Positions 4,956 through 21,868 of a DNA stretch of 32,000 nucleotides are shown here, piece by piece. The position numbers and the translations under genes were made by a program. Position 1 is the stretch's first letter; every line of letters begins with the position of its first letter. Source of the DNA: Nitrospinota bacterium (lineage in GTDB: Bacteria > Nitrospinota_A > UBA7883 > JACRGQ01); assembly GCA_029881495.1 (NCBI GenBank), contig JAOUMJ010000020.1, positions 22,230 through 54,229 on the forward strand, given 5' to 3'. Below the pieces are notes generated by a model. That model did not search any database. It was not told the DNA's origin and worked only from the letters and a program-made list of their open reading frames with translations.

Positions 4956-7900
4956 ATGGATGAGCGTCTTCACGTCTATCCCACACGCTTAAAGGTCGAG
5001 GAGGTCGAGGCCGAAAGGTATCGCTCAGCCGGGGCTGTTTTCAGCAAACACCTGATAAGCATTTTCGAATTGGAAGGTCGGCTCGCCCGCGACCTCGTGC
5101 CATATAATCCGATAAGCGAAGTCGAGAGATGGCTTCTCATCAATCAGTCGATAATTTCCGAAAAATCGCTCGGAAGGGATAGAGCGATGGCCCCCCTCAT
5201 ATCAAGTGACGGATTCGTAAGATCCGTTGGGGAATTGATCCAGCAGATAAAACTCGGTCTTGTCGATTCAGCCGATCTTGAAAAAATAAACGGGTTTGCC
5301 CCCGGCAAGGAGGGGTGGATAAAAAAGGTATTTGCCGCCTATCAAAAATTGCTTCGAACCGAGGGGCTTTACGATTCCGCGGATATCAGCATGGAGCTTG
5401 TCAAAAAACTCCATGACGGAGTGGCTCCTCCTGCATGGTTGAGGAGTTTCAGCGGAATTGATTTTTTCGATATCTATCACTACACACCTTTCCGTTTCGA
5501 AATGATTACCCGGCTTGCTGAAGTGGTAAATATAGTTGTTCATTTCCCGTTGCCGGATGAGAGGCGGAAGGCGTTTGATTTTGTGGAACGGGACATTCAG
5601 AAATTCCAGAGCCTGGCCGGTATGGAAGGGAAGCTTGAGCTTGCGTTTGATTCTCTCCCAGGAGACGATCCCGGGAATAAGAAAAAAACCGCGCTTGATA
5701 TCCTTGCAGGGCAGATATTCTCAGAAGAGGCGGGGGATGCCGAAGAGGAAATATCCGATAGCGTAGAGGTGGTAAAAAATTCCGGCAGATACCGGGAGAT
5801 AGAGGAAGTCGCCTCAAGGATAATGGATCTCAAGGAGAGCCGGAGGAGTTGGTCTGATTTCTGTCTTGTATTCCGCCAGACAGGGAGCTACGCGAATATA
5901 GTGGAAGATGTTTTCCGCCGCGCCGGGATACCTGTCTATATAAGACGCGGATTGCCCGTAAAGAACAATCTTCTTGTAAAGACGATTCTTGGAATTTTCA
6001 GGATAATCGAAACCGGGTATGACCGGGATGAAATAGTAAAACTTATGACTTCCGATTACTTCGATATCGGCCTCTCCCGTGAATTTGCGAGATATCTTGA
6101 AAAAATATTCATGGATGCCGGAATCATCAGCGGTCCTCCCTCCTTGCTGGAAAAGAAATGCGCCGCTTATTTGAAACGGGGCATTGAAATGGATGGTGTG
6201 CCGGTAGCGGCAGAAACAGTCGACGATATTTCCGCGGGACTAAAAAAGGTATTTTCCATACTGAAGGAAGTTGAAAAACTCTCCCGCGCATCGAAAGCGG
6301 GGGAGACCATAGCGATATTCAGGAAGCTGCTAAAAATATTTTCTCCCAGGGCGATCCAGTTCGGCTTCCCGTTCTTCACAAGAGACCTCTTCTGCAAGGG
6401 GAGGTTCTATGAAGTAGTGGAGGAAGCTGAAAATGCGGTCAAGGAGCATAAGCTGGGGGAGTCCCGCTTCGGATGGGGGGATCTAAGGAGGTTGCTTTTC
6501 AACTCGCTTGGAAACGCGGAGCTTCCCGAATGGTCTGAGAAGAATCATGTCTACGCGCTCAATATCCATGAGCTGGCAGGGAGGAGGTTCCCTTACATTT
6601 TTGTTTGCGGTCTGCACGACGGGGAGTTCCCGCTTAAATCGGAGCATGGGGCTGTGCTTTCAGAATCTGAAAAAAAGCTTTTCAATGAAAAACACTCTGA
6701 AACCGTCCTCGCCCGAATGGCCGAGAGGAAAATGGGGAGGCAGGTTTTCAGCAGGCTCGGAGAGACGTGGGACGAAGAATCTTTCCTCTTCTTTCTTGCC
6801 GTACGTTCCGCGAGGGAGAAAATATATTTTTCATACTCCACGCACGACCTGAACGGAAAGGAACTCGGCAAGTCGACCTTTCTTTACGATATAAAAACGG
6901 TCTTACCTGCGCTTGCCGAAACAGCGACGAGGTCTGTCGCGCTTGAGAAGGGATATTTCGAGCAGATAGACCACCCGGCGCGTGAGGCAAAGCTGTTGCG
7001 CGACATTTTCAATACGCCAGAGGAAAACGCCGGAGCGTTGGCTGATTACTACAGAAGCGTGGTTGGCCATCCGGTCACGGGAAAGAGTTTCATAAACTCG
7101 TGCGAAAGGAGCATGATAGAAAGGGAGCGGGACAAATTTTATTCGTCTGCCGAGCCTGACGTCCGGGCAAACGCGTCAAGCGTATATACCGGCAAGGTTG
7201 GGGAGATGCCATTGCTCTCGGGATACGTTGAGAAGGAAGCGCGGAAAGGATTTTCCGCAACCGCGATCGAGAGGTTTGCAAATTGCGCGTTTCGCTATTT
7301 CATGGACAGGCCGCTCCAGGTAAAGCCGCAGGAGCTGCCAAGGGCCGATATTGAAAGGACCGTGAAGGGGAGCATCGCGCATGAGATCCTAGAGATATAT
7401 TATGCGCCAAAGGGGAAATTCAAGGTTCGCTCATCTCTTGAGCCTCGAAATGCGAGGGAGAAAAGGTTGAACACCGTTGCCGAAAAGGTATTTGCAAAGT
7501 GGGAGAAGTCCGAACTGAAAGGGGAGCCTGCCATCTGGGAGATAACCAAGGAGCAGATAAGGAGGGCGCTCTCGCTTTATCTCCGCTCCGAAGAGACAGC
7601 GTTCGAAAAGGAGCCCTTCACTGTGGTGGCTACCGAATTGAAGTTCGGCCCGGATGAACCCTTCTCCGTATCATTAAAACTGCCGGGCGGGGAGATGTCT
7701 TTCAACGGCCTTATCGACAGGATTGATCTTCTGGACGCGAAAGGGATGCTGAGGGTAGTTGATTACAAATATTCGAGCAACACATCGAAGTTCTCAAAAT
7801 TGGTGAAGAGTGAAAAATATGGCGAAGAGAGTTTTCAGGTTCCTGTATATCTTCTCGCCGCGCTGAATTTGGCAGAAAGAAAGGAAGAGTTCTCCGAAAT

Positions 7901-8153
7901 CAAAACGGCGGTGGCAAGCTACATCACCTTGAAGAAGGAGCCGAAGGAATCGGCTGTATCGCCAACGGCCTCGCTGTCGTCGGGTGACGGCGATTTCTCC
8001 TTCGATAACGCGGAATTCCTCTCGAGGTTTGAGAATATCAGAACGAAGATGAATTCGGGCGATTTTTCCGTTACGCCGAAGGATTGTGTTTTTTGCAAAT
8101 ACCGAAGGGCATGCAGGTACAGAGAGGTTATGAGCGTTGAACTTGGAGAGTAG
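4956..8153 (+). CDS. addB: AddB-type helicase-nuclease subunit B (PD-(D/E)XK nuclease family, no Walker A)
   Basis: 1065 aa. The C-terminal RecB-type nuclease motif is 'GLIDRIDLL...LRVVDYKYSS'. A canonical iron-staple Cys set is present ('FANCAF' ... 'DCVFCKYRRAC', i.e. C-Xn-C-X2-C-X5-C). No GxxxxGK[ST] motif occurs in the N-terminal region. An in-frame TGA at 4950-4952 prevents N-terminal extension. The 3' end overlaps addA. Confidence 0.8.
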   Translation: MDERLHVYPTRLKVEEVEAERYRSAGAVFSKHLISIFELEGRLARDLVPYNPISEVERWLLINQSIISEKSLGRDRAMAPLISSDGFVRSVGELIQQIKLGLVDSADLEKINGFAPGKEGWIKKVFAAYQKLLRTEGLYDSADISMELVKKLHDGVAPPAWLRSFSGIDFFDIYHYTPFRFEMITRLAEVVNIVVHFPLPDERRKAFDFVERDIQKFQSLAGMEGKLELAFDSLPGDDPGNKKKTALDILAGQIFSEEAGDAEEEISDSVEVVKNSGRYREIEEVASRIMDLKESRRSWSDFCLVFRQTGSYANIVEDVFRRAGIPVYIRRGLPVKNNLLVKTILGIFRIIETGYDRDEIVKLMTSDYFDIGLSREFARYLEKIFMDAGIISGPPSLLEKKCAAYLKRGIEMDGVPVAAETVDDISAGLKKVFSILKEVEKLSRASKAGETIAIFRKLLKIFSPRAIQFGFPFFTRDLFCKGRFYEVVEEAENAVKEHKLGESRFGWGDLRRLLFNSLGNAELPEWSEKNHVYALNIHELAGRRFPYIFVCGLHDGEFPLKSEHGAVLSESEKKLFNEKHSETVLARMAERKMGRQVFSRLGETWDEESFLFFLAVRSAREKIYFSYSTHDLNGKELGKSTFLYDIKTVLPALAETATRSVALEKGYFEQIDHPAREAKLLRDIFNTPEENAGALADYYRSVVGHPVTGKSFINSCERSMIERERDKFYSSAEPDVRANASSVYTGKVGEMPLLSGYVEKEARKGFSATAIERFANCAFRYFMDRPLQVKPQELPRADIERTVKGSIAHEILEIYYAPKGKFKVRSSLEPRNAREKRLNTVAEKVFAKWEKSELKGEPAIWEITKEQIRRALSLYLRSEETAFEKEPFTVVATELKFGPDEPFSVSLKLPGGEMSFNGLIDRIDLLDAKGMLRVVDYKYSSNTSKFSKLVKSEKYGEESFQVPVYLLAALNLAERKEEFSEIKTAVASYITLKKEPKESAVSPTASLSSGDGDFSFDNAEFLSRFENIRTKMNSGDFSVTPKDCVFCKYRRACRYREVMSVELGE

Positions 8154-11100
8154 CAGGGCAGAGGAGATAGTAGGGTTCGAAGGGGACACCTGCGTTCGCG
8201 CCTCGGCGGGGACGGGGAAGACCTTTATTCTCGTCGAGAAATTCATGCACATCCTGAAAGAGAAAACCGACGACAGTTATACGAAGATAGAAAATATCCT
8301 CGCGATAACCTTTACCGACAAAGCAGCGGAGGATATGCGGAAGAGGATAGGGGACAAAATATATGAAGAGGTGCGCGAGCTTGAAAAGCGGGAGAGAACA
8401 AAGGAAGAGGAAAAACTGCTAAGGCATCTTCGCACGGCAAGGAGGCTGTTGACGAAGGCGTACATCTCAACGATTCACTCCTTCTGCGCGAGGATATTAA
8501 GGGAGAATCCGCTGGAGGCAGGGATAGACCCGCAGTTTGAGATACTTGACGCGCAGAGGACTGGCGCGTTGCAGTCCAGATCGCTTGAACGTTTCCTTCT
8601 GGATAAACTGAGGAGAGGCGACAAGCCGGTTGCCGAACTTGCATACAGGTTCGGATTCGATTCGGATTTCGCGTTTGAGAGTTCGCTTTTCAGCCTCGTA
8701 TTGAGCCTCCTCCCTTTGATGAGAGCGGCGGGAGTAGATATTTTCTCCGAAAGGGCCTTGCTGTCCGAGTATTCGGAAAAGCTGGATGATGCTGAGAAAA
8801 TGCTTTCAGAACAAAAGAAGCAGTGTGCGTCCATTCTAAACGGGATGTCGGCTGAAATTTCAACCGAGAAACAGAAGGTGATAATGGAAATGCTTGTGAG
8901 TGGGATTTCCGCTCTTTCACCCTCAAGCGATATTGGGAATGAGGACACGCGGAAAAGCGTAAGCGGTATGAAATCTGCCATCAACCTGAATACCTTTAAA
9001 GGTAAAAAAGATGGCAATCTAAAGGCGCTGGCAACCGAGCTAAAAGAGACGCTGGAATTATATGAAATGACGGTTGTCTCTTCTCTCGCGCGTGAATCAG
9101 CCAGGCAGATAGCCGAGCTTGTCGGAGAGTTTTATCAGTACATGGAATCGTCCGTGAAGAACAGGGGCTTGCTTGATTTTGACGACTTGCAGGAGATGAC
9201 CCTCTGGCTTTTCAGGCGAAATGAAAGGATACTCGCGTATTACAGAAAAATGTTCCGCAATGTGCTGGTAGACGAGTTTCAGGATGTGAACGGTCTGCAG
9301 AAAATGATAGTGGAACAACTTGCCCCTCCCGGCGAAGGGAAACTTTTCGTGGTGGGGGACGTAAAGCAGGCGATATACGGATTTCGCGGGGGAGACCTTG
9401 AGGTGTTCGACGAAACCGAAAGAGCGATTGTAGAGAATGGCGGCGGGCTTTTCCGCCTGAATGTAAACAGGCGTTCAAATCCCGGTCTTGTGAAATTCGT
9501 GAACAGCTACTTCGGAAGATATGAGAAGAGCGTTTTCGACGCTGGTGATGAATGCGTATCTATGATGGATGAAACCGAAGTTTCGCCGGTGGAGTACTAT
9601 ACCTTCTCTGATGAAGAGAGCGCCGACAAGAGGCGGTTCAGCGAAGCAAATTTTATCGCGTCGCGAATAAACCGGCTGGTAGGTGAAAACAAGGCAAAGT
9701 TTTCCGACATGGCGATCCTTCTGCGAAAGTTTACCCCCCTCCCTATATACGAGGCCGCGCTTTCCCGGAATGGAGTGAGATACGCGGTACACAGGGGAAC
9801 AGGATTCTACAAGAGCCAGGAGGTGGCGGATCTTATTTCGATTCTCTCCTTCATTGATAATCCCGGCGACATAGTATCCTGGGTCGGCGCGGTGCGCTCC
9901 CCATACTGCGGATGTTCGGACAGGACCCTTTTCACGCTGAGGAGGGATGGTGAAGGAAAAACGGTCGAGCCGTACCGCCTCTTTTCAAGGGATGCCTATC
10001 TCCCCCCGCTTGATGAAGGGGAGGGGGAGAAATTCTCCGCCTTTGCGGAATGGGTCACTTTATTGATAAATCTGAAGGACAGGATGGCGGTATCGGAAAT
10101 AATCGAAACTGTTCTGGAAAAGAGCAGGATAACCGGCCTTCTTGGAGCGCAGAACGACGGTCTGCAAAAAGTTGCCAACGTGCTGAAGCTTATCGAAACC
10201 GCGAGGATGATGGAGCAGGAGCCGGGATTTACGCTGAAAAATTTCGTAAGGCACATCACGCGACTCTATGAACAGGAGGAGAGGGAATCCGAGGCAGTTG
10301 TCGTATCGGAAGAGGAGAATGCTGTAAAGATAATGACCGTGCATCAGAGCAAAGGGCTGGAATTCGGCATTGTATTCCTGCCGGACATTGGATCAAGCGG
10401 GAAGCGCGGAGGAGGATCGGCGATATTCCATAAGCGTAAAGGCTTGGCGGTAAAATATGTCGAGAAGGAAACCTTGTCATCCCATTCAGGGATCGTCTTT
10501 GAATCCACTAAGGAAGAGATAGAAGAAAAAGAGAAGAGCGACGCGAAGAGGCTTTTCTACGTCGGCTGTACCAGGGCGAAGGATATGCTGGTGCTTAGCG
10601 GATGCCCGGACCCGAAAAAGAAGAGGAGTGAAGCTTTGTCGGGCCTGGATGAATTGATGGAGCGCGAACCCTCCCTGTTCAATATCGTTTCCATACCCGT
10701 TGCAACTATGGAGGAGATAAGGGAACAGCGAACCCCATATGATGTATTGTCCGCCGGAGAAGAGCCGAAGAATACTGAATTGGGCAAAGGGGGCGAAGGG
10801 GTTGCGCCAATGGAACCCGCAGATGAAAGGAAAGAGGTCTTTGTCGATACAAGGAGCCTCGCCTCGTTCGCGAAATGTAAAAGGGAGTACATGCTTGGGA
10901 GATTGTACAGCGTGCCGGCAGAGAGGAGTTATCATGGCGGGCGCGGAGGGCGCAAGGGTGTTTACGAAGCGATGGAGATCGGCAACGCGATACACGCGAT
11001 TCTTGAAAAGCTCGATCTTGAGGTCCCGCAAGATGAAATGAGGACAGAAATTATCAAAATGGCGAAAAGGGAATTGCCTCTAGCATCAGAGGCGGAACTC

Positions 11101-11649
11101 CTGAAAGTTTCGCAAAAGCTGGAACGACTTTTTAAAACTCCGCTCTTTGAAAAAATTCGAAGCGGTGAAATGGAAGAAAAAGGGAGAGAGGTGCCGTTTA
11201 CTGCAAGATTCGGCAGGGATGGAGATGCATTTTTCCTCAAAGGGCAGGTCGATCTCCTGCTAAGGAGGGGCGAAACGGGGGTGATGATCGTCGATTACAA
11301 ATACGCTGTGAGGGGCGAAAGCGAGACGACTTATCGCTTTCAGGTGGAGGCGTACGCGGTTGCCGCGGAGCGCGTTCTCGGTGTCGAGGAGATCGTGTGC
11401 GCGATAGTCTATCTTGGCGGCGAAGAGCCGGAGTGTGTGGAATGGAAAATGGATACAGTGAAACTTCAAAAAGCTGAGGAGGCGATAACCGGTTCCATGA
11501 AAATGATTTCGGAGATGGAGAGGAGCCTTAGGGGAACTGAAGGGATACCCGACGCCGACTTTTCAAATATCCTTGGCGAGAGCGGAGCGGAAATAAAGTG
11601 TCCCGACGGAAACTGCGGCTATCATGCTGTCTGCTTCAGCGGTGAATAG
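8137..11649 (+). CDS. addA: AddA/RecB-type UvrD-family helicase with C-terminal PD-(D/E)XK nuclease
   Basis: SF1 helicase motifs: Walker A 'ASAGTGKTF', motif II 'VDEFQDVN', motif III 'VGDVKQAIYGFRGGD', 'TVHQSKGLEFGIVFL' and motif VI 'LFYVGCTRAKDMLVLS'. The C-terminal nuclease motif is 'GQVDLLL...VMIVDYKYA'. TTG start at 8137, 17-nt overlap with addB. Walker A lies only about 25 codons in, so the start is tightly constrained. Confidence 0.87.
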   Translation: MNLESSRAEEIVGFEGDTCVRASAGTGKTFILVEKFMHILKEKTDDSYTKIENILAITFTDKAAEDMRKRIGDKIYEEVRELEKRERTKEEEKLLRHLRTARRLLTKAYISTIHSFCARILRENPLEAGIDPQFEILDAQRTGALQSRSLERFLLDKLRRGDKPVAELAYRFGFDSDFAFESSLFSLVLSLLPLMRAAGVDIFSERALLSEYSEKLDDAEKMLSEQKKQCASILNGMSAEISTEKQKVIMEMLVSGISALSPSSDIGNEDTRKSVSGMKSAINLNTFKGKKDGNLKALATELKETLELYEMTVVSSLARESARQIAELVGEFYQYMESSVKNRGLLDFDDLQEMTLWLFRRNERILAYYRKMFRNVLVDEFQDVNGLQKMIVEQLAPPGEGKLFVVGDVKQAIYGFRGGDLEVFDETERAIVENGGGLFRLNVNRRSNPGLVKFVNSYFGRYEKSVFDAGDECVSMMDETEVSPVEYYTFSDEESADKRRFSEANFIASRINRLVGENKAKFSDMAILLRKFTPLPIYEAALSRNGVRYAVHRGTGFYKSQEVADLISILSFIDNPGDIVSWVGAVRSPYCGCSDRTLFTLRRDGEGKTVEPYRLFSRDAYLPPLDEGEGEKFSAFAEWVTLLINLKDRMAVSEIIETVLEKSRITGLLGAQNDGLQKVANVLKLIETARMMEQEPGFTLKNFVRHITRLYEQEERESEAVVVSEEENAVKIMTVHQSKGLEFGIVFLPDIGSSGKRGGGSAIFHKRKGLAVKYVEKETLSSHSGIVFESTKEEIEEKEKSDAKRLFYVGCTRAKDMLVLSGCPDPKKKRSEALSGLDELMEREPSLFNIVSIPVATMEEIREQRTPYDVLSAGEEPKNTELGKGGEGVAPMEPADERKEVFVDTRSLASFAKCKREYMLGRLYSVPAERSYHGGRGGRKGVYEAMEIGNAIHAILEKLDLEVPQDEMRTEIIKMAKRELPLASEAELLKVSQKLERLFKTPLFEKIRSGEMEEKGREVPFTARFGRDGDAFFLKGQVDLLLRRGETGVMIVDYKYAVRGESETTYRFQVEAYAVAAERVLGVEEIVCAIVYLGGEEPECVEWKMDTVKLQKAEEAITGSMKMISEMERSLRGTEGIPDADFSNILGESGAEIKCPDGNCGYHAVCFSGE

Positions 11650-13614: not shown

Positions 13615-14501
13615 CAGTGCGTCCTGCTCCCGATGAAGAGCGCAAGCTCTTCAAGCGGTTTTATGTTCCCCTTGAGATCCTTTAGAGCCGCTATCGCGTT
13701 AATGATCTTTTCCGAAGCAAGCTCGCGGGACCTGTCGAGTCCAAGAAGGGAAGGATATGTCATCTTGCTCCTTGCGTCGTCGCTTCCGGCGGATTTTCCG
13801 AGTTCTTCCGTATTCCCTGTTACGTCGAGTATATCGTCGACTATCTGGAAGGCGTGGCCGATATTCTCGCCGTACTTCGCGAGCGAAGCCAATTCGCGGT
13901 CGTTCGCGTTTCCTATCAGTCCGCCCGCCTTTACCGCGGCAATTATCATCGCCCCGGTTTTACGGGTATGGATGTATTCGAGCGTCTCCATATCACCCTT
14001 TTTCCCTTCCGATTCGATGTCTACCTCCTGGCCGCCGACGGTACCCTGCGCGCCGACTGCTTGGCCGACTATCCCTATTATTCTAATCATTATATCCGAA
14101 GGGATTCCAGAGCCGTTGGGAGGGGATTCGGACAGTATTTCAAACGCGAGCGTTAGGAGGGCGTCCCCCGCCAGGATAGCAGTGGCCTCGCCGAATTTTA
14201 TGTGATTTGTTGGGAGCCCCCGCCTGAGATCGTCGTTGTCCATCGCGGGGAGGTCGTCATGGATAAGTGTGTATGTGTGGATCAGCTCTAAGGCAGCCGC
14301 TGTCGGCAAGGCGTTCTTCCTGTTTCCGCCGACAGCTTCTGTCCCGGCGACCACCAGGCATGGGCGCAGCCTTTTCCCCCCGGCAAAAACGGAGTAGGAC
14401 ATCGACTCAAAAAGCTTTTTCGGGATGTCTTGACGGACATTGAAAATGCGCTTTAGTTCCGATTCTATCTCTTTTCGGATTTCTTTAAAATGGGAGTTCA
14501 T
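13614..14501 (-). CDS. ispA: (2E,6E)-farnesyl/geranylgeranyl diphosphate synthase (polyprenyl synthetase)
   Basis: First Asp-rich motif '[17 protein letters not shown]' and second 'FQIVDDILD'. The stop overlaps the dxs start by 1 nt (TGATG). Confidence 0.93.
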
Positions 14502-14745
14502 CCTGCTCCGATGTGGAGTCCGTTTCCATCTGTTGCGTGGAAAGATTTCCTTTCTGATCCTTTATGAGTTTTTCGATCTTTTTTTCGGCGCCGGAAAGCT
14601 GGCTCTGGCAAACCTGCGCCATCTGGATACCTTCCTCGAACATTTTCAGGGATTTCTCAAGTTCCAGTTCTCCCCCCTCAAGCTGAGAAACAATCTCTTC
14701 CAGCTTTTGAAGGGCTTTTTCGAATTTTACCGTTTCCCCTGCCAT
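14485..14745 (-). CDS. xseB: exodeoxyribonuclease VII small subunit
   Basis: '[43 protein letters not shown]' is the typical XseB helical hairpin. I chose the ATG at 14745 ([12 protein letters not shown]) rather than the TTG at 14796. It overlaps ispA by 17 nt. Confidence 0.85.
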
Positions 14746-14751
14746 GCGCGT

Positions 14752-14780
14752 ATTATATCCCTTTCGCCGGGAATTGGAAA
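14752..14780 (-). promoter_or_regulatory. putative sigma70 promoter (TTTCCA-N17-TATAAT) placed for a leaderless or near-leaderless xseB transcript
   Basis: On the minus strand there is a perfect TATAAT (plus-strand 14752-14757) exactly 6 nt upstream of the xseB ATG. A -35-like TTTCCA (14775-14780) sits 17 nt further upstream. No Shine-Dalgarno sequence lies between them. Confidence 0.4.
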
Positions 14781-14851
14781 TGTCGTAAAGGGGCAAATAG
14801 ATGTATTTTCAGCCGCTTTTCAGGGTATGTTCCGTTAATCGGTGACTGCGA

Positions 14852-16987
14852 TCAGTAGCGGATCTCGGTCGGGTCGGAAGGGGCGGCCTTCTGCTGAGGG
14901 GTCTTGTCGAGGTCTTCCATGGAGAAGGCCCCGCTCTTGAGGAATCCGCGCACCCTTGTAACAACCGCGATCTTTGCCTGATCGACTTCCGCGACCGTAG
15001 CGTCCTTGGCAACGATCTTGTATTCGTCGCGCACTATCCTTCTTGCGTCCTCGTTGAGTGCCGAAAGTATCGCCGTCTGCACGTTCTTGTCGGACTGTAC
15101 AAGGGATTTGGCGATGGTGCTTCTCTCGAGATCCCTGATGGAATCCTTCAGCACGTTTCTCGGCACCTTCGGAATGTCGGTGAACGTGAAGTAGACCTTC
15201 TTTATCAGGTGGTATGTCTCCGGGTCCTCGGACTTGAGATGTTCGAGGAGCGTTGTCTGCGACGACATATCCATGAAGTCCATCATGCTGACCATGATGC
15301 CGACGCCATCGGCGGTAATGTTTTCAAGGCTTGGCACATCAATCGCCCGTCTGGCGATCCTCTGCGCAACCGGCTGGAAGGCGTTTATAGGTATGCTCTC
15401 GAATTTCGCCAGCTCGTACGCAATTGACGCCTGCTCTTCTATCGGAAGGTTTTTCAAAACCCCGGCCATCCTTTCCGGTGAAAGTTGCGAGAGAATGAGA
15501 GCCTTGACCTTTATCTCCTCCTCCTTGACGAGATAGGTTATTTGCGCTTCATCCAGATCGTTTAGGAAGCTGAACGGTTTTACTTTCTGCTTTTTGGCTC
15601 CGTGATCTTCCATCAGTATCTTTCTCATGGTGTCGTCGTGGAACCTCTCAAGGTACTGAACGGTTTCTTCCTCGCCGATCTCCTCTTCCTTCATGACGGT
15701 TTCTATCTCTATCAGCCTATCTACCGACAGCTCGCTGAAGATGCTCTTGCCGAGGTTGAAGCCGAGCACAGAGAAGAGGATGGCGGCCTTTTTCACGCCC
15801 TCACTGCTCTCAAGCTCTTCCTTTATCCTGCTGTTAAGGAGCCTCGGTTTGCCTACACCGAGGCTGACGATCTCCTGCTTGTACTGCTCTTTTTTCATCT
15901 GGAGCTTCAGGAGTTTTTTCTCCTCATCGATGAGCCCTCTCCTTTTCTCGGCTTCGCTTAGGGATTCTGATTTCTCCCTGGCTATTCTCTGCGCTTCGGC
16001 CATCTTTTCCTTTCTGAGTTTTCGCGCGGCGGACCAATTACGAAAAAAAATTCCGAATATGGTTACAAGCATCAGCAGAAGCATTATGCCAAGGAGCGCT
16101 ATGGCAAGATTTTCCCATTTCCTGTCGTCCATTGGAACTTTCTCTGCCGGGAAATCTATCTTTATGACTTCAAAGCCGTCCCCTCTGGTGACGTCCATGT
16201 CGAGCTTTTTGTAAACGAGGTTCTTAATGAATGATTCCTGCTCGCTCGTAATATTCCTGTCGACCATGAAGGTAACGAATATCTTCCTGATTATTTTTTC
16301 AATCTCCTGCTTCGTCTCCCGGACTGGAGGCGACTGAACCGGCATCGGCAAAACAGGCTGCTGTTGCTGAACAATCGTCGCGGCAGGCGGGATGAATGTC
16401 TCATCGGTAGTTACCGTCCTTTTCTGTCCCGGCGCTCTTCCTGTATCGTCTTCCATATCTTCATCGCCGAAGTCCGATCCGAGATCCGAAAAGGGGAGGC
16501 CCGGAAGTGTTTCGCCAAAATCGTCGCCTGACGCAAAGTCTCCTGAATCCTCCCTTGTCACTCTCCGTTTGATGAACCTGTTTTGCTGGAACTGCTGTTC
16601 CGGTGTGAGAACAGGCTGGAACTGGGTGACTGAAGTCTGCGGAGCCAAAGGCTGTTGCTGTATCTGCGATTGTTCCTGCGCAAGCGGCTGGGCTACCGGC
16701 TCCGGAGCCTTAGGAGCGATCGTCTCGGTTTTTGAGTCGAATATTTCAGCGTCGACCCTCAGGATGAAACGGGAATGACCAAGGTATGACGATATATCCC
16801 GGCTTAATCTCTCCTCGACCCGTTTTTCAAAAACAATTCCGCCGAGTTTGTCTTCTTCGAGTGTGGTTTTTACTTCATCCTGGGCCAGGGTGATTCCGGT
16901 CGAGGTGAGAAAGAATACAAGCGCACTGAAGAGGAAGAGCCCCCTTCCGTTCACCCATCTATTTTTCATAATCGTCATATTTTCCAT
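14852..16987 (-). CDS. membrane-anchored FliF/EscJ-like periplasmic module fused to a FliG-like (N/M/C) cytoplasmic domain
   Basis: 711 aa.
- aa 15-35: hydrophobic signal/anchor.
- aa 51-87: 'FEKRVEERLSRDISSYLGHSRFILRVDAEIF', resembling the FliF/PrgK/EscJ ring-building motif ('LEGELxRTIxxLxxVxxARVHLxxP').
- aa 88-225: Q/P/D/E-rich low complexity.
- aa 226-280: 'IFVTFMVDRNITSEQESFIKNLVYKKLDMDVTRGDGFEVIKIDF', resembling the second half of that motif.
- aa 293-315: TM helix.
- aa 316-390: K/E coiled coil.
- aa 395-690: FliG-like, with 'AAILFSVLGFNLGKSIFSELS', 'ALILSQLSPERMAGVLKNLPIEEQASIAYELAKFESI' and the torque-helix-like 'LSALNEDARRIVRDEYKIVAKDATVAEVDQAKIAVVTRVRGFLKSGAF'. Confidence 0.7.
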   Translation of the reverse strand: MENMTIMKNRWVNGRGLFLFSALVFFLTSTGITLAQDEVKTTLEEDKLGGIVFEKRVEERLSRDISSYLGHSRFILRVDAEIFDSKTETIAPKAPEPVAQPLAQEQSQIQQQPLAPQTSVTQFQPVLTPEQQFQQNRFIKRRVTREDSGDFASGDDFGETLPGLPFSDLGSDFGDEDMEDDTGRAPGQKRTVTTDETFIPPAATIVQQQQPVLPMPVQSPPVRETKQEIEKIIRKIFVTFMVDRNITSEQESFIKNLVYKKLDMDVTRGDGFEVIKIDFPAEKVPMDDRKWENLAIALLGIMLLLMLVTIFGIFFRNWSAARKLRKEKMAEAQRIAREKSESLSEAEKRRGLIDEEKKLLKLQMKKEQYKQEIVSLGVGKPRLLNSRIKEELESSEGVKKAAILFSVLGFNLGKSIFSELSVDRLIEIETVMKEEEIGEEETVQYLERFHDDTMRKILMEDHGAKKQKVKPFSFLNDLDEAQITYLVKEEEIKVKALILSQLSPERMAGVLKNLPIEEQASIAYELAKFESIPINAFQPVAQRIARRAIDVPSLENITADGVGIMVSMMDFMDMSSQTTLLEHLKSEDPETYHLIKKVYFTFTDIPKVPRNVLKDSIRDLERSTIAKSLVQSDKNVQTAILSALNEDARRIVRDEYKIVAKDATVAEVDQAKIAVVTRVRGFLKSGAFSMEDLDKTPQQKAAPSDPTEIRY

Positions 16988-16994
16988 TTTACCA

Positions 16995-17669
16995 TTACCG
17001 GTGTATTTTAATTACCACTCTGCGGTTCTGCATTTGATTTTCCGCAATAGCGTTTCCAAGTTCATCCCTGTTTGGAGCCTTGGGCGCGATGTCGGCAAAC
17101 CCGGAAGCCTGCAGTCTCTTTTTTTCAATACCGAATTCGATAAGCATGCGGAGCACGTTTGTAGCCCTCGCGGTCGAGAGCTCCCAGTTGGAGGGGTATT
17201 TCACAGTATTGATAGGAACGTCGTCCGTATGCCCCTCCACCGAGACCTTGTGGTCGTCGTATGAGATCACTTTCAGCGATTTGGCTACCTTGTCGATGAT
17301 CGGTCTCGCGGTATCCATTATCTCCGCGTCGCCGGACAAAAAGAGGGCGGCGCTGGAGAATTCCAGCTTTATACCCTGTGCGGAGAGGTCGACCATTATT
17401 TCCTTTTCCAGGTTTTCCTGTTTAATCATCTTGTCCAGCTCGTTTTTCAGTTCATGGAACGGTTTTGTAACCTTCTTTTTGCTAACCGATTCAATAAGTC
17501 CGGCTTTGACCTCTTCATACTTTGAAGCATCTACTACCGATATCGCGGCAAGGAGAATGAAGAAGGCGAGGAGCAGGGTGACCATGTCCGAATAGGTGGT
17601 CATCCATGTTCCTTCCTCCGATTCTTCGGATCTCCTTCTTCCGGGAGAGCCGCTCTTGTTGAAAGCCAT
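16995..17669 (-). CDS. motB: MotB-type stator subunit (OmpA-like peptidoglycan-binding domain)
   Basis: Single TM helix carrying the conserved channel Asp ('TTYSDMVTLLLAFFILLAAI'). The C-terminal OmpA-like domain has 'VSVEGHTDDVP' and the PG-binding motif 'NWELSTARATNV'. An SD-like AAGGAA lies upstream of the ATG. Confidence 0.87.
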   Translation of the reverse strand: MAFNKSGSPGRRRSEESEEGTWMTTYSDMVTLLLAFFILLAAISVVDASKYEEVKAGLIESVSKKKVTKPFHELKNELDKMIKQENLEKEIMVDLSAQGIKLEFSSAALFLSGDAEIMDTARPIIDKVAKSLKVISYDDHKVSVEGHTDDVPINTVKYPSNWELSTARATNVLRMLIEFGIEKKRLQASGFADIAPKAPNRDELGNAIAENQMQNRRVVIKIHR

Positions 17670-17694
17670 TACCTGTTCCTTTTAATGTTTTTCA

Positions 17695-18474
17695 TTACCT
17701 GCCGCTTTTCTTTCTGCTGAACCGCTTTTTTGGCTCAATGAAAGAGTTGAGTTTGTTTTCAACGAATATGGGGTGCTGTTTTTCCGCCAGTAGGAGTATC
17801 CCGTTCATCTGTATTACTCTCACCAGCACCTCGTAATCGGTTCTTCGCCTTATTTTTTCCGCTATCGGCATGAACAGCAGGTTCGACAGGAGGGTTCCGT
17901 ACAACGTCGTAGTAAGGGCTATCGCAAGTGCGGGCCCTATTGTAGAAGGGTCTTCCCCCATCTGCTGAAGCATGATTATAAGGCCTACGAGGGTACCGAT
18001 CATCCCAAAGGCAGGCGCGTACGATGCCATAACCTTGAACATGCTGTACTGCCCCTGCTGGGCGTCCACCATCCCTTCTATCATGTTTTCCAGGTTGGCC
18101 TTGATCTCATCTCTCTTGTACCCGTTGATAAGGAGCATGAGACCGTCCTTTTCAAATGAATTTTTAAGCTTGAGAGCTTCGTCCTCTATCGCGGAGAGCC
18201 CCTTGCTCTTTATGATCTCCGCCCACCGCGCAAACCTCGGAACAAGGTTTGTGTATGTGGTGTCATGCGACATGAATATCTTGTATACCGACAGGAACGA
18301 GCGTTTGACGTCCTCGTAGGGGAACGCGATGAATGTCGAGGCAACCGTTCCCCCAAGGACAATCGCGAAGCCCGGCATATTTACAAATACCAGGTACTCT
18401 TTCGTACTGCTTACGATAGCGGCGACGAATATCGCGATACCGGCAATAAGTCCGATCAAGGTTGATATTGACAT
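17695..18474 (-). CDS. motA: MotA/PomA-type stator subunit (MotA/TolQ/ExbB proton-channel family)
   Basis: 259 aa with four TM segments and a large cytoplasmic loop between TM2 and TM3. The conserved Pro-containing TM3 and TM4 read 'YAPAFGMIGTLVGLI' and 'GPALAIALTTTLYGTLLSNLLFMPIAEKI'. Size and topology match flagellar-type MotA, not the long-tailed ZorA. Confidence 0.9.
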   Translation of the reverse strand: MSISTLIGLIAGIAIFVAAIVSSTKEYLVFVNMPGFAIVLGGTVASTFIAFPYEDVKRSFLSVYKIFMSHDTTYTNLVPRFARWAEIIKSKGLSAIEDEALKLKNSFEKDGLMLLINGYKRDEIKANLENMIEGMVDAQQGQYSMFKVMASYAPAFGMIGTLVGLIIMLQQMGEDPSTIGPALAIALTTTLYGTLLSNLLFMPIAEKIRRRTDYEVLVRVIQMNGILLLAEKQHPIFVENKLNSFIEPKKRFSRKKSGR

Positions 18475-18475
18475 A

Positions 18476-19153
18476 TCAGTACCCCATTTCCTCTAGTTTG
18501 CGTCTTACGTCATTCATGGAAGGGTCGTGCTGAAGCGCCGCTTGCCACGATTGAACCGCCAGATCGAGCTTCTTCATCCTGTAAAAGATGGAGCCTTTCA
18601 GCGCGTGCGCGTAGGCATAGTCGGGGGCTATCAGCAGGGCCTTGTTCACTTCCTTCAAGGCGAGCGTGTACCGCTTCTTATAGAACTGTCTCTGCGCCTT
18701 GTTCAGATGGTTACTTGCCCTGTTGAAAGGGGATTGCGCCTCCGACGGCTCGCCGGGGGAAATCGCTACATCCTCCTCCGGAATGTCCATCTGCACAAAT
18801 ACGTTCTCATCGCCGGGGTCGATGTTCATCACGATGTCGTAACTTCTCCCCTTTCGCCTTATCTGCACGGTTTGGGGCGAGCGCGTGGCAAGAGTATCAT
18901 CTGCCGCCGCCCCTTGTTCGTTTGCTCCGTTCCTCTGCGGCTCGAGATTTATCGGCAGGTCGCCGGTATCCTCTCCCTTGCGGGCGGCCTCTTCCCTGGC
19001 CGCCTGTTTCACCATATCCTTTGTAGAGGAGCAGGCTGTAAGGGGGGAGAATGCAAATAGCAATATGGAGGCGGGGAGGATAACATGGGCCATAACCGCC
19101 CTTGCCAAGTTTGACCGCCATACAGTTTTCATCATTTCAATCACCTTGTTCAT
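18476..19153 (-). CDS. TPR-repeat lipoprotein
   Basis: Signal peptide ending in the lipobox 'PLTAC' (Cys41). A charged, probably disordered linker is followed by C-terminal TPR-like repeats ('QFYKKRYTLALKEVNKALLIAPDYAYAHALKGSIFYRMKKLDLAVQSWQAALQHDPSMNDV'). The start abuts the upstream stop (TAAATG), and the stop is 1 nt from the motA ATG. Confidence 0.7.
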   Translation of the reverse strand: MNKVIEMMKTVWRSNLARAVMAHVILPASILLFAFSPLTACSSTKDMVKQAAREEAARKGEDTGDLPINLEPQRNGANEQGAAADDTLATRSPQTVQIRRKGRSYDIVMNIDPGDENVFVQMDIPEEDVAISPGEPSEAQSPFNRASNHLNKAQRQFYKKRYTLALKEVNKALLIAPDYAYAHALKGSIFYRMKKLDLAVQSWQAALQHDPSMNDVRRKLEEMGY

Positions 19154-20470
19154 TTAAAAAACAAATCCGATACCGACTTCATACGTCGTTCCGCCAAAAT
19201 TGATATGCGATTCGAAATCGCCGATAGGCACCAGTTCGATCCTCTTTTCAGGGATATTCACAAATCCCAGAGAGAAGGAAAAGCGCTCGCTGAATCTAAG
19301 GGTCAGGCCGCTCTTATAGATTTCGGTGTGGTGTTTCATGAACAGCGCCTCGCCAAGGGAGACGTAGTAGTTCCATGTGGAGAAATATTCCTTCCGCAGA
19401 TTTTTTTCATCTACCGGCTCGTATCCCTCACCGGAGAAGAATATCTTGTCGAGCTTTAGGATAAGGTGCCCGTAAAATGCCCCTCCCGCAATGTCGAAGA
19501 ACTCGGGCCTTACGATATTGGCGAAATAATCGAGCCCAACGCCGTATATGATATGTTTGGAGTTCTTCGATTCTCTCAATACCTTGAGGCTAAGAGTAGC
19601 CACCTTGTCGAGATGCTCTGCTGGGAGAGTGGCGGACTTTCTCTCATATTTGTAGCCCCATATGCCGGTCTCCAGAGCAACTTCGTACGGGCGGAGTTCC
19701 TTTTCCTCTTCGATCTCCTCAAAGATGTCCTGGAACTTTCTCGCCCATACGACCTCCCCTGTCTTTGCGTCTACGACCTTGAAATTGAGAAACAGCTTGT
19801 CGTTTTCAACATATACGTTCCAGAGGAAAAAGCCGTCGACCTTTATGTTCTTTGCAATTTCCGCGAGCCGCTGGTTCGATTCCACGGCCCTCAGGATGGT
19901 GAACGTGTTCTCCTTGAGGATGAGCTGGGTCGATTTGCACTCCATGCATTCGAATATCTGGAACCTGCCGGTTTCAAGAAGTTTGCGTGTTAGCCCGTTC
20001 TCGATAAGCTCGTATATCTTCGCTGGCAGCATTTTGTTCTGCTTGTCGGCGTTCCGGTAAAGGGCGATCTTGTTCACGCGCGGACTGATAGATAAAAGTT
20101 CCTCTTTCGAGAAATTCATCGCCATGATAAGCGTCTGAACACGTTCGTAGAGATTCGGGTTTCGCGTCTGCTCAAAGGCCTCACCTGTGAGGAGGCTTTT
20201 TACCGGCTGTCTGTTCCCAGGCTGCGGTGTTGTCCCGGGGAGAGGCGCGGTATCGTCGAATACGGTTTCATCCTGCGGAAGCTCAAGTGGCTCACCATCC
20301 GGTGGAAGCTCGTCTTCAGGCGGCAGTTCTATACTCTTCACCGGTTGAAAGTCGGGTGATGCACCCGCCGGAGGCTCCTGCGCGTATGACAGATTGGCCA
20401 CTAAAAGCGCAAACAATATCGCTGACAACCAGGTATATCTACCCAGATGCAAAACTTTGACGTATTTCAT
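19154..20470 (-). CDS. secreted outer-membrane-type protein: P/E-rich linker, CsgG/FlgO/TolB-N-like alpha/beta module, C-terminal beta-barrel-like domain
   Basis: Signal peptide 'SAILFALLVANLSYA|QE'. aa 31-90 are Pro/Glu/Asp-rich. aa ~130-245 ('IALYRN...LTRKLLETGRFQIFECMECK...VDGFFLWNVYVENDKLFLNFKVVDAKTGEVVWARKF') resemble the periplasmic alpha/beta modules of CsgG, LpoB, FlgO and TolB-N proteins. aa ~260-438 form alternating beta-strand patterns ending in the OMP-type beta-signal 'YEVGIGFVF'. The RBS AAGGGA sits 7 nt upstream of the ATG. Confidence 0.6.
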   Translation of the reverse strand: MKYVKVLHLGRYTWLSAILFALLVANLSYAQEPPAGASPDFQPVKSIELPPEDELPPDGEPLELPQDETVFDDTAPLPGTTPQPGNRQPVKSLLTGEAFEQTRNPNLYERVQTLIMAMNFSKEELLSISPRVNKIALYRNADKQNKMLPAKIYELIENGLTRKLLETGRFQIFECMECKSTQLILKENTFTILRAVESNQRLAEIAKNIKVDGFFLWNVYVENDKLFLNFKVVDAKTGEVVWARKFQDIFEEIEEEKELRPYEVALETGIWGYKYERKSATLPAEHLDKVATLSLKVLRESKNSKHIIYGVGLDYFANIVRPEFFDIAGGAFYGHLILKLDKIFFSGEGYEPVDEKNLRKEYFSTWNYYVSLGEALFMKHHTEIYKSGLTLRFSERFSFSLGFVNIPEKRIELVPIGDFESHINFGGTTYEVGIGFVF

Positions 20471-20499
20471 TCATTTATCCCTTCTTGCGTCAAAAAGTA

Positions 20500-20515
20500 T
20501 GCAGTAATCATTCCA
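20500..20515 (-). promoter_or_regulatory. putative sigma54 (-24/-12) promoter for the five-gene operon
   Basis: The minus strand reads TTGGAATGATTACTGCATA. GG and GC have exactly the consensus spacing of TGGCAC-N5-TTGCA (here TGGAAT-N5-CTGCA). The element sits about 30 nt upstream of the ATG at 20470, with the RBS in between. Confidence 0.3.
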
Positions 20516-20572
20516 ATATTTGAAAATCCCGGAAAAATAACCACATAGAGAGAGGGGAGCGTTAAAAAATTG

Positions 20573-20594
20573 ACGTAAATTCCCTTTTTTACGT
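20573..20594. promoter_or_regulatory. inverted repeat ACGTAAA-N8-TTTACGT (candidate activator/regulator site)
   Basis: Perfect 7-bp arms at 20573-20579 and 20588-20594, about 60-90 bp upstream of the putative -24/-12 element. That is the distance typical for enhancer-binding-protein sites. Confidence 0.25.
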
Positions 20595-20685
20595 AGGAAA
20601 CTTGCTCCAGTTTTATCTCCTTAAAAGAAGCGAGGAGGTGGTGACAATCTCTACAAAAGCGAATTTTCCAAAATTGTGAGGCCAA

Positions 20686-20702
20686 CCTACAAAAAATGTA
20701 GG
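20686..20702. promoter_or_regulatory. palindrome CCTACA-N5-TGTAGG
   Basis: Perfect 6-bp arms with an AAAAA spacer, inside the 582-bp intergenic region. Function unknown. Confidence 0.2.
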
Positions 20703-21052
20703 ATATATTTCTCCCTAAACTGAGCATCTTTCTCCCTTTGGTTTGAATGAAACGTAACATATTATAGCAACAAAAGAGCCTTCTCCGCACCCGGCTTCTG
20801 GAAGCCGTTTTCACCCGGTTTGTCGCGATCTTTTCCGAATTTGCCATAGCTGAATAAAGTCTCCCTATAAGCGAGCCCTCGCTGTTCTTTCAAGTCGATG
20901 AGCGAAAATTGCTCTCAACAGCTAGTATACTATTACTGGTAAACAGCGCATTCATGGCAATGAAAATTTGCCCGGGATCTGGAGAAACCGAGTAAATAGA
21001 TCTTTCGTTCTGGAAAATTGAAATTTAACAATTCGAAGAGGGGGGTGGCAAA

Positions 21053-21868
21053 TTGGGATCATCGTCAGTCACGGAAAATTCGTTCCGCGAAACAACGCTT
21101 GGCAAGACAGGGAGGGTAGTTGGAAGGATTGCCGTCTCCGGCGGCTACGGTGTGCCGGCTGGCGCGGTCGAGATGGCGTTCGAGCGGGGGTGCAACTATT
21201 TCTATCACGGTTCATTCCGCAAAAAAGGGATGAATGAAGCGATTAAAAATCTTTGCGCCGCCGGGAAGAGGGATGAGCTTTTCATAGTCGCCCAGGTCTA
21301 TACGAGATGGGGCTGGCAGTTCCGCAGAAGTTTTTACAGCTTCCTAAAGAAAACCGGCCTTGATTATGCCGATGCGCTCTTACTCGGCTGGTACAACTCT
21401 ACCCCCTCCCCGAAGATACTCGACATCTGCGCGGAACTAAGGGAGAAGGGGCTTGTTCGCCATATCGCCATCTCGGGGCACAACAGGCCGGCGTTCCCGG
21501 TGTTCGCCGAGAAGGGTGTCGGAGATATATTTCATATACGGTACAACGCCGCCCACAGGGGGGCGGACTCGGACGTATTCCCGATGCTGAAAGGGGATCG
21601 TCCCGGCACGGTTGCCTATACGGCCACTTCGTGGGGACAGCTGTTAAAGAAGGGGAAAATGCCCGCCGGAGAAATGGTGCCGCGGGCTTCGGACTGTTAC
21701 AGGTTCGTATTGTCGAATCCAAATTTCGACCTCTGCATGACAGGCCCCGCCGACACTGCACAGATGGGGGAGGCTCTCGCCGCTCTTGACCGCGGGGCGA
21801 TGAGCGAGGAGGAGCTTGCCTGGATGCGCCGTGTCGGCGACCATGTGAGTCGTAAGAGTTTCAGATAG
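21053..21868 (+). CDS. aldo/keto reductase-like oxidoreductase
   Basis: 271 aa. The N-terminus 'FRETTLGKTGRVVGRIAVSGGYG' and 'VRHIAISGHN' fit the AKR (COG1453-like) TIM-barrel family. The canonical 'DTAxxY' block is not obvious ('CNYFYHGSF'), so it may be divergent. TTG start with a GAGGGGGG RBS 7-8 nt upstream. Confidence 0.55.
   Translation: MGSSSVTENSFRETTLGKTGRVVGRIAVSGGYGVPAGAVEMAFERGCNYFYHGSFRKKGMNEAIKNLCAAGKRDELFIVAQVYTRWGWQFRRSFYSFLKKTGLDYADALLLGWYNSTPSPKILDICAELREKGLVRHIAISGHNRPAFPVFAEKGVGDIFHIRYNAAHRGADSDVFPMLKGDRPGTVAYTATSWGQLLKKGKMPAGEMVPRASDCYRFVLSNPNFDLCMTGPADTAQMGEALAALDRGAMSEEELAWMRRVGDHVSRKSFR

Follow-up and report, generated by a model that had tools for sequence, protein, structure and literature searches.

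A widespread gene module of flagellar-type stator and rotor proteins, without linked flagellar genes, in a Nitrospinota bacterium and other bacteria

What do the core parts of a flagellar motor do at a locus that has no other flagellar gene? This question is raised by five genes in a 32,000-nucleotide (nt) stretch of contig JAOUMJ010000020.1 from a Nitrospinota bacterium (metagenome-assembled genome, assembly GCA_029881495.1), the whole of which we call the window. They encode a MotA/MotB-type stator pair, a protein of 711 amino acids (aa) in which a FliF-like part with ring-building motif 3 (RBM3) is joined to FliG, a lipoprotein with tetratricopeptide repeats (TPR) and a secreted protein of 438 aa. 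Our analysis confirms that these genes belong to a widespread and undescribed stator-rotor module of flagellar type, as seen from the identity of the parts, their conservation and the lack of linked flagellar genes. The five genes probably form a self-contained envelope machine which is made of flagellar motor core parts and works without a flagellum. The module is most likely flagellar-derived or flagellar-ancestral and couples ion flow to an outer-membrane process.

The operon consists of five minus-strand open reading frames (ORFs) at 14852-20470, separated by gaps of 0, 1, 25 and 7 nt. These coordinates agree with the tight packing given in the original prediction, a short note made from the letters of this DNA alone. 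The genes are as follows:

19154 to 20470, minus strand: secreted protein of 438 aa, a probable outer-membrane or outer-membrane-associated component (ORF without any Pfam or NCBIfam match)
18476 to 19153, minus strand: TPR lipoprotein of 225 aa (lipobox, TPR_2 and TPR_1 matches)
17695 to 18474, minus strand: MotA of 259 aa, a PomA/MotP-like stator A subunit (MotA_ExbB, PomA in PDB)
16995 to 17669, minus strand: MotB of 224 aa, the stator B subunit (MotB_plug and OmpA)
14852 to 16987, minus strand: FliF(RBM3)-FliG fusion of 711 aa, the presumed rotor subunit (Pfam, NCBIfam, PDB profile and Foldseek)

The 711-aa protein is best described, because of its Foldseek and profile matches to FliG and FliF, as a FliF that has been reduced to an RBM3-type domain and fused to a complete FliG. 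On the FliG side, Pfam gives FliG_C (6e-17, aa 582-688), FliG_M (1e-11, aa 481-552) and a weak FliG_N, NCBIfam gives TIGR00207 fliG (5e-22), and the family profile matches the Thermotoga maritima FliG structure 1lkv in PDB with 3e-33 and 3hjl over its full length. On the FliF side, the same profile matches residues 348-558 of Salmonella FliF (E=2.8e-8), and there is a weak Pfam YscJ_FliF_C match at aa 223-279. The structural model has a mean predicted local distance difference test (pLDDT) score of 79. The top Foldseek matches of the model are full-length FliG (3hjl, 8e-10, 318 columns) and the FliG of the Salmonella C ring, the full-length matches 3hjl and 8umx spanning 318-326 columns, and next come structures of the RBM3, collar and S-ring part of FliF (6sd3, 6sd1, 8zdt and 8z4d) with E of ~1e-2 and probability 1.0. 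The protein begins with a hydrophobic segment, and the following parts can be placed behind it:

16160 to 16873, minus strand: periplasmic region, aa 39-276, with RBM3-like beta-alpha-beta ... beta-alpha-beta order (model, Foldseek, FliF profile)
16493 to 16507, minus strand: LPGLP motif, aa 161-165, midway along the disordered loop of the periplasmic region (checked in the translation)
16040 to 16111, minus strand: second transmembrane helix, aa 293-316 (model; two-helix topology predicted in most family members)
14918 to 15805, minus strand: FliG-like region, aa ~395-690, complete with its three armadillo domains (N, M and C) (Pfam, TIGR00207, PDB, Foldseek)

In the model a long cytoplasmic helix runs from the second transmembrane helix to about aa 392. 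The FliG part is covalently fused behind the second transmembrane helix, here and in most clades, unlike the soluble FliG of ~330 aa which docks onto FliF. At the position of the FliF beta-collar, the model and its pLDDT values place a disordered Pro/Gln-rich insertion of ~130 aa (aa 91-224). On the periplasmic side, nothing in the family is better conserved than the LPGLP motif in this insertion (L161 in 138, P162 in 144 and G163 in 143 of 153 sequences), and LPG[LMIVF] is found in 131 of 152 members. We regard the motif as a candidate docking peptide. FliF RBM1 and RBM2 are the domains that surround the export gate. Neither the searches with the 711-aa protein nor its model revealed a domain of either type, and the model leaves no room for them; hence the FliF part has no place for an export gate.

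Several residues of the rotor protein stand out across the 153 aligned sequences. Both hinges are kept, the GG-hinge through its glycine G561 (148/153) and the MFxF-like hinge, which reads Y..TF602.D, through F602 (131/153). Other conserved columns are G269/D270, the GD of an RGD (145-147), F472/F474 of a PFxFL (149-151), E490 (144) and Q501 (117). The torque helix of the window protein reads EDARRIVRDEYK. In E. coli FliG the charged torque-helix residues R281, D288 and D289 face MotA R90/E98. The position equivalent to R281 (647) is Arg or Lys in 145/153 sequences, and acidic residues are frequent at the equivalents of D288/D289 (654/655). The window protein is atypical here, with D647, then R649/R650/R653 and then D654/E655. 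The FliM-binding EHPQ motif is degenerate, with its Glu alone kept (E490) and EEEI in the window protein. The loss of this motif fits the absence of fliM/fliN, neither of which was found in the 32-kb window or in the listed recurrent flank families of related loci.

The stator genes are of flagellar type. MotA matches Pfam MotA_ExbB (7e-24), has four transmembrane helices and a full cytoplasmic torque-generating domain, and aligns end to end (aa 1-251) with Vibrio PomA (PDB 8bri, 4e-41), its residues K89, E97 and D98 falling on PomA R88, E96 and E97. In the homologues linked to the cluster, the prolines P154 and P203 of transmembrane helices 3 and 4 are kept in all 60, R/K89 in 43/60 and E/D97 in 40/60. 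MotB matches MotB_plug (1.1e-17) and OmpA (1.6e-15) in Pfam. It carries Asp28 within 'TTYSD' of its transmembrane helix (nt 17586-17588), and the peptidoglycan-binding domain of OmpA type has the motif NWELSTARATNV. All 61 linked homologues (61/61) keep D28 as well as N, W, L, S and R in the NWELS..R motif, and E163 is kept in 59/61. The original prediction had named these ion-stator hallmarks, assigned the two genes to MotA and MotB, and read the last gene as a FliG-like partner tethered to the inner membrane, and the Pfam, NCBIfam and PDB matches, FliG_M and FliG_C included, bear it out on each of these counts.

The stator forms a diverged subfamily of its own. In NCBIfam, MotA is closest to MotP (2e-59) and PomA (3e-53), both below the equivalog cut-offs, and MotB to MotD (1e-50) and MotS (1.5e-43). 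The best scores stay far under the cut-offs of the flagellar stator families (MotP 200.7 bits against 394, MotD 172.6 against 283), from which the divergence follows. Its class is nevertheless that of the flagellum and not of Exb, Tol or Zor, because of the full-length PomA alignment, the plug and OmpA domain, the poor tolQ and exbB scores and the lack of a ZorA match. A Tol/Exb identity was rejected, as tolQ matches only with E=0.04 and exbB with 2.4e-4. Zorya or another defence system was also rejected, since PADLOC gave no ZorA match and its ZorB matches are generic (76 bits, compared with 173 for MotD). In recent phylogenies of stators, the 'FIT' stators, which bear a plug, are counted as flagellar (the 'FIT/TGI4' class, PMC12505986).

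The two remaining genes encode envelope proteins. In the 225-aa protein the TPRs are C-terminal (aa ~147-217; TPR_2 1.2e-7, TPR_1 2.8e-7), and the lipobox LTAC41 is followed by an acidic linker. The closest NCBIfam family is a PilW-type TPR lipoprotein (3.8e-8, far under the cut-off), and the TPR homologues at loci L001, L002 and L003 also have lipoboxes. The 438-aa protein has a signal peptide, a Pro/Glu-rich linker, an alpha/beta domain (aa ~110-250) and a beta-rich C-terminal half that ends in 'GIGFVF', a terminal Phe being present in 16/19 aligned homologues. Its structure was predicted from a 5-sequence alignment, with pLDDT 50 overall and ~75 for aa 110-250, and shows ~8 long strands in aa 265-436. 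Foldseek gives the LpoB C-domain first (4q6l, E=2.6e-3, probability 1.0), then PelC, GNA1162 and TolB-N, and weak barrel matches to FapF, OmpX and OmpW. The LpoB, PelC, GNA1162 and TolB-N folds occur in periplasmic, outer-membrane-associated and often ring-forming proteins. As this model is poor, insertion of the 438-aa protein into the outer membrane can only be called likely. The claim of the original prediction that every envelope layer is covered by this operon is an inference, in which the outer-membrane site of the 438-aa protein depends on the signal peptide, the C-terminal Phe and a beta-rich model of low confidence. The protein is 100% identical to the NCBI entry 'hypothetical protein OEY64_09440 [Nitrospinota bacterium]'. 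We also observed a CxxC pair at aa 174-180 (ECMECKS/CIECRT), common to the Nitrospinota, gammaproteobacterial and Bdellovibrionota versions and replaced by PE(F/L/V)xx in those of Cloacimonadota, Fibrobacteria and Elusimicrobia; the pair may form a disulfide in the periplasm or bind a metal.

The module is not confined to this contig. With a word-indexed protein search the 711-aa protein had only 12 homologues and the 438-aa protein only 4, which falsely suggested a very rare family, and a further indexed search with a 19-sequence alignment of the outer-membrane family added one protein. An exhaustive hidden Markov model (HMM) search with the fusion family found 403 clusters (50% identity) at E<=1e-30, and nearly all of the best 150 of these are ~600 aa long and have the two-transmembrane topology in common. 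Fusion homologues with 24-58% identity adjoin the same four families in differing orders. Using a degenerate DNA pattern on family-specific residues, we collected at least 120 stretches from GTDB species genomes, cut as arbitrary 8-kb blocks to which the neighbour counts are limited. Among the matches listed, the fusion family is encoded in 100 of 120 loci by HMM scan; MotA and/or MotB lie inside the block in 69 of these 100 and the TPR protein in 58, and the outer-membrane family was found by BLAST clustering in 40 of 108 family loci. The five-gene association proposed for the window thus recurs in other genomes, far more widely than expected, with the partner genes in part of the blocks.

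Since the same gene set recurs in ~100 independent loci, it cannot reasonably be put down to chance. The genes come in at least five different orders, shuffled between clades, and the functional residues are near-invariant across phyla despite 20-30% overall identity. No flagellar family is among the 25 most frequent Pfam families listed for 125 flanking ORFs of related loci. The recurrent flank families are extra TPR proteins, a cyclic-nucleotide-binding protein and housekeeping enzymes.

The hosts cover a wide range of bacteria. Marinimicrobia/Fidelibacterota are the largest named group among the matches listed, and further hosts are found in Balneolaceae, Bacteroidia, Sphingobacteriales, Chitinophagaceae, Ignavibacteriae, Fibrobacteria, Cloacimonadota, Elusimicrobia, Bdellovibrionota/Oligoflexia, SAR324 and 'Tanganyikabacteria'. 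Bacteroidia, Sphingobacteriales and Chitinophagaceae are lineages without flagella. Among the Gammaproteobacteria, the module was found in Bermanella (one of its genomes, NZ_CP139003.1, being complete), Oleispira, Gynuella and Vibrio penaeicida. Genomes are available for three cultured strains with the module, i.e. Bermanella sp. R86531, Vibrio penaeicida TUMSAT-NU1 and Balneola sp. EhC07.

Several lineages have their own version of the module. The rotor of Marinimicrobia/Fidelibacterota is split into adjacent fliF-like (HMM positions 8-305) and fliG-like (305-602) genes, the former encoding a membrane protein of 410-680 aa and the latter one of ~310 aa, at loci that include L010, L011, L012, L021, L026, L042, L057, L059, L061, L063 and L071. 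The order there is TPR (~450 aa, double the usual length), motA, motB, fliF-like and fliG-like. No clear outer-membrane-family gene was found in these loci by HMM, and a BamD/YfiO-like TPR_6 protein and a CarboxypepD_reg-domain protein are recurrent upstream. In Bdellovibrionota/Oligoflexia a protein of ~169 aa with a cyclic-nucleotide-binding domain stands between motA and an enlarged rotor gene of 770-810 aa (1066-1575 on the minus strand of L079, also L060, L123, L124, L101 and L102), and this gene inside the module hints at second-messenger control of the machine in that group. At L085 (1662-5760, a SAR324 metagenome-assembled genome, MAG) a tandem duplication within the module has left a truncated FliF-like gene (452 aa, HMM 11-182), a second TPR gene and a full-length rotor gene of 602 aa, in this order. 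In Vibrio penaeicida (L073, 3-3542, minus strand) an ORF of more than 1180 aa follows directly downstream of the module motB and runs past the block edge; it could encode a cargo or surface protein. A divergent module at L007 (GCA_013558375.1, JACCDG011542058.1) has a MotB of 479 aa, MotA, two unknown proteins and a rotor of 596 aa. It lies on a 9-kb contig beside a serpin gene, in an assembly with contig numbers above 1.5 million, and probably stems from a symbiont or from contaminating bacteria in the sequencing of a eukaryotic genome.

The genes around the operon in the window are housekeeping genes, with xseB-ispA-dxs downstream and an aldo-keto reductase gene upstream. Of the other ORFs scanned in the 32-kb window (>=150 aa), none gave a flagellar Pfam family, in agreement with what the original prediction had said of the neighbourhood. 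No minus-strand terminator-like site was found within 14300-21200, and the promoter and terminator scans are uninformative because site counts are at the shuffle expectation. One weak promoter-like site lies at 21051-21022, without enrichment of such sites, and a Shine-Dalgarno-like GAAGGG precedes the first ATG of the operon. The site of the operon promoter is presumably the following spacer:

20471 to 21052, minus strand: upstream intergenic region of 582 nt, divergent from the aldo-keto reductase gene

A riboswitch or RNA leader was rejected, as Rfam gave no match across the whole window. An ORF of 126 aa at 20467-20847 (minus strand) overlaps this spacer, has no family match and a Cys/Arg-rich composition, and is probably spurious. 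The rest of the window encodes grpE-dnaJ, a di-haem peroxidase, an alcohol dehydrogenase, pabB/pabC-like proteins, a UbiX-type flavoprotein and dnaK; no tRNA was found in the window. Beside grpE-dnaJ, at 2262-4234 (minus strand), are tandem BatA-N and VWA proteins (328 and 329 aa), a BatA/BatB-type 'aerotolerance' pair. Two overlapping plus-strand genes at 4956-11649 (1065 and 1170 aa) with UvrD-helicase and PD-(D/E)XK nuclease domains form an AddAB/RexAB-type pair for double-strand-break processing. At the end of the window (31001-32000) the GC content is 0.375, compared with ~0.50 elsewhere, and an ORF at 31398-32000 (plus strand) encodes a small secreted Gly/aromatic-rich protein with a beta-barrel-like look.

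How far does the module resemble known machines? To our knowledge, FliG and the plug-bearing, OmpA-anchored MotAB/PomAB stators all belong to flagella, and the 5:2 motors known outside flagella (Ton, Tol, Agl, Gld and Zorya) all use Exb/Tol-like units with periplasmic transducers. The module shares with the flagellar motor core a stator whose homology to PomA/MotP and MotB/MotS extends from end to end and takes in the plug, the Asp and the OmpA domain, and a rotor protein in which an RBM3-type domain of FliF between two transmembrane helices is combined with a complete FliG. It differs from the flagellar motor in that no genes for the export gate of the flagellum's type III secretion system, FliM/FliN, rod, hook, filament or rings are linked to it in the window and the listed flanks, in its dedicated TPR-lipoprotein and outer-membrane partners, in its degenerate EHPQ and in its occurrence also in phyla without flagella. 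It differs from flagellar FliF in lacking RBM1/RBM2 and in having a disordered, LPGLP-bearing loop in place of the beta-collar.

GldLM/PorLM is a similar case of an ion-driven inner-membrane motor of the 5:2 family which energises an outer-membrane-associated complex with lipoproteins, and some of its phyla (Bacteroidota) are shared. However, GldL and GldM are Exb/Tol-like, the force transducer GldM is periplasmic, and there is neither a FliG-type rotor nor an OmpA-type anchor; Pfam and NCBIfam detected no sequence relationship to GldL/GldM beyond the MotA/ExbB superfamily. Tol-Pal, ExbBD-TonB, AglRQS-Glt and Zorya likewise turn 5:2 ion flow into envelope work, often with TPR or OmpA-type partners, but they lack FliG/FliF homologues, and the stator here is of the flagellar class. 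None of the partners ZorCD, TolA/B-Pal, TonB, GltG/J or GldM/K/N was found in the 32-kb window.

Fusions of FliF with FliG are known from engineering and from one natural case. Engineered fusions have been reported to support motor function. They form rings (PDB 8z4d; PMC11481574). The natural fusion of Chlamydiaceae, which have no flagellum, also has a signal peptide, two transmembrane helices and a reduced FliF joined to a FliG-like cytoplasmic domain (PMC4768692). It is ~330 aa long, with RBM2, one RBM-like domain and a FliG_M-like region only, its partner is supposed to be the injectisome, and it has no association with MotAB, TPR or outer-membrane proteins (PMC4768692). The family described here differs by its length (600-800 aa), its RBM3-type domain, its full FliG N/M/C and its clustering with a stator. 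The chlamydial protein is the only natural FliF-FliG fusion already described, and we found no published description of a non-flagellar FliG-MotAB module in the openly accessible literature, subscription journals being outside its scope. The original prediction had called the operon an undescribed type of system; this holds for the module as a whole, while a natural join of FliF and FliG, smaller and without a MotAB link, was already known. We see a substantial chance that the module is a new kind of machine.

From these observations we can sketch how such a machine may work. PomAB-like stators of MotA5B2 type would conduct H+ or Na+ through the channel at MotB Asp28 and would be anchored to the peptidoglycan by the OmpA-type domain of MotB, since the catalytic and anchoring residues are strictly conserved. 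The cytoplasmic domains of MotA would push the FliG_C torque helix of the 711-aa protein, a contact that we suggest because the FliG fold is complete and the complementary charges are partly conserved. The two transmembrane helices would hold this protein in the inner membrane, and its RBM3-type domain would drive oligomerisation into a putative ring, a rotor like the MS/C ring but without export gate, FliM/FliN and rod. In the place of the beta-collar the Pro/Gln-rich loop, with LPGLP at its mid-point, could reach the outer membrane because its arms of ~65 residues would each span ~20 nm when extended. We speculate that the LPGLP tip is bound by the TPR lipoprotein in the outer membrane, by the 438-aa protein through its LpoB/PelC-like domain, or by both, the TPR lipoprotein being proposed because TPR domains bind short extended peptides. 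Torque or tension may then be passed on to a process of the outer membrane or surface, for instance secretion, the remodelling of the envelope or the movement of components on the cell surface. Taken together, it is quite possible, and we propose it tentatively, that the module is a widespread non-flagellar rotary motor, i.e. an axle-less FliF(RBM3)-FliG ring that is spun by PomAB-type stators and wired to the outer membrane by the loop, the TPR lipoprotein and the outer-membrane protein.

A number of points weigh against this proposal. The ring and its rotation are deduced purely from RBM3 homology, for which the Foldseek E values are modest (~1e-2). The torque interface departs from the flagellar one in that the R281-equivalent is Asp/Glu instead of Arg in the window protein and its closest relatives, and the MotA charges are kept in only ~65-70% of homologues. 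The contact between LPGLP and the TPR lipoprotein is hypothetical, the model of the 438-aa protein is of low confidence (pLDDT 50), and no finding indicates an output or cargo of the machine. The cultured hosts Vibrio penaeicida, Bermanella and Balneola are, we take it, flagellated, so that a functional interplay with the flagellum is possible in them. The negative results for flagellar genes cover the window and the flanks, so a flagellar regulon may lie elsewhere in the source genome, and some Nitrospinota are listed in surveys of flagellar proteins across phyla.

The same parts could also work without a rotary ring. They would then form a low-copy force transducer like TonB or TolA, in which one stator turns or pulls the tethered FliG and tension runs through the loop to the outer membrane. 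The loop resembles the Pro-rich periplasmic spacers of TonB and TolA in its Pro/Gln-rich composition, and the known non-flagellar 5:2 motors act via a periplasmic transducer rather than a cytoplasmic ring; yet a cytoplasmic FliG-MotA contact would be a roundabout route to pull a periplasmic tether. No gene for a FliM/FliN scaffold was found in the window or the listed flank families, as expected for such a transducer, but the full FliG N/M/C and both hinge motifs, on which inter-subunit stacking in the C ring depends, are retained. The RBM3 similarity is weak in sequence, which would also suit a transducer, whereas RBMs are the ring-building motifs of FliF, SctJ/D and SpoIIIAG (PMC4768692). 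On balance we consider a transducer without a ring unlikely.

Another explanation is that the module is an accessory or alternative rotor-stator set, serving a conventional flagellum encoded elsewhere as a second motor, a stator scaffold or a brake. Both the stator and FliG belong to the flagellar type, and the known cultured hosts are presumably flagellated. TPR/Sel1-type proteins and outer-membrane-associated lipoproteins with alpha/beta domains, resembling the partners found here, scaffold stators in Vibrio (MotX/MotY and FlgT) and Campylobacter (PflA/PflB and FlgP). Those scaffolds form periplasmic rings round the rotor and position the stators, and by analogy the TPR lipoprotein and the LpoB/PelC-like domain could have a stator-scaffold role; however, rod and L/P rings are present there and absent here, and Pfam and NCBIfam gave no sequence match to the MotX/MotY/FlgT or PflA/PflB/FlgP families. 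Among the matches listed, flagellar genes are never adjacent in ~100 loci, a dedicated MotAB pair is present in every clade, and the module occurs in MAGs of Bacteroidia, Sphingobacteriales and Chitinophagaceae, which are free of flagella. Without RBM1/RBM2-type domains the 711-aa protein has no place for the export gate of such a flagellum, and its EHPQ motif is lost. A role as flagellar accessory is therefore improbable in our judgement.

The 711-aa gene might instead be the sole, fused fliF-fliG of a normal flagellar regulon. The same Bacteroidia, Sphingobacteriales and Chitinophagaceae hosts, the presence of RBM3 only and the degenerate EHPQ argue against this, and the Vibrio and Bermanella hosts have canonical flagellar genes of their own.

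The original prediction had also allowed for a reduced relic of a flagellar basal body. A functionless, decaying remnant of this kind, for which one could cite the mere subset of flagellar parts and the leftover flagellar genes known in non-motile lineages (PMC12199754), is very improbable, and the pattern of conservation effectively refutes it: none of the five ORFs is broken, the functional residues hardly vary between phyla, the module co-evolves with two partner families that are not flagellar, and ~400 diverged clusters keep the gene set despite rearrangement, one fission/fusion and lineage-specific additions.

If the module is indeed a non-flagellar machine, it would provide the first FliG-MotA torque interface outside the flagellum, and the ion-driven machines of the envelope would gain a new class, one that works with neither export apparatus nor rod nor filament. 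It would either descend from the flagellar motor by reduction or be the surviving relative of a 'proto-motor' that existed before the secretion system. This would make approachable the question of a torque-generating core independent of the type III secretion core, of 'half a flagellar motor'. Rotor proteins also turned up in the genomes of non-motile bacteria in a survey of motility loss, where it was noted that they 'could have an alternative function' (PMC12199754), and the module would offer one for them. The cultured hosts with available genomes are starting points for genetics and cryo-electron tomography. Marine and anaerobic groups that are abundant but uncultured (Marinimicrobia, Cloacimonadota, Fibrobacteria and Bacteroidota) commonly have the module, and it may underlie surface or envelope behaviour of these bacteria which has so far gone unrecognised.

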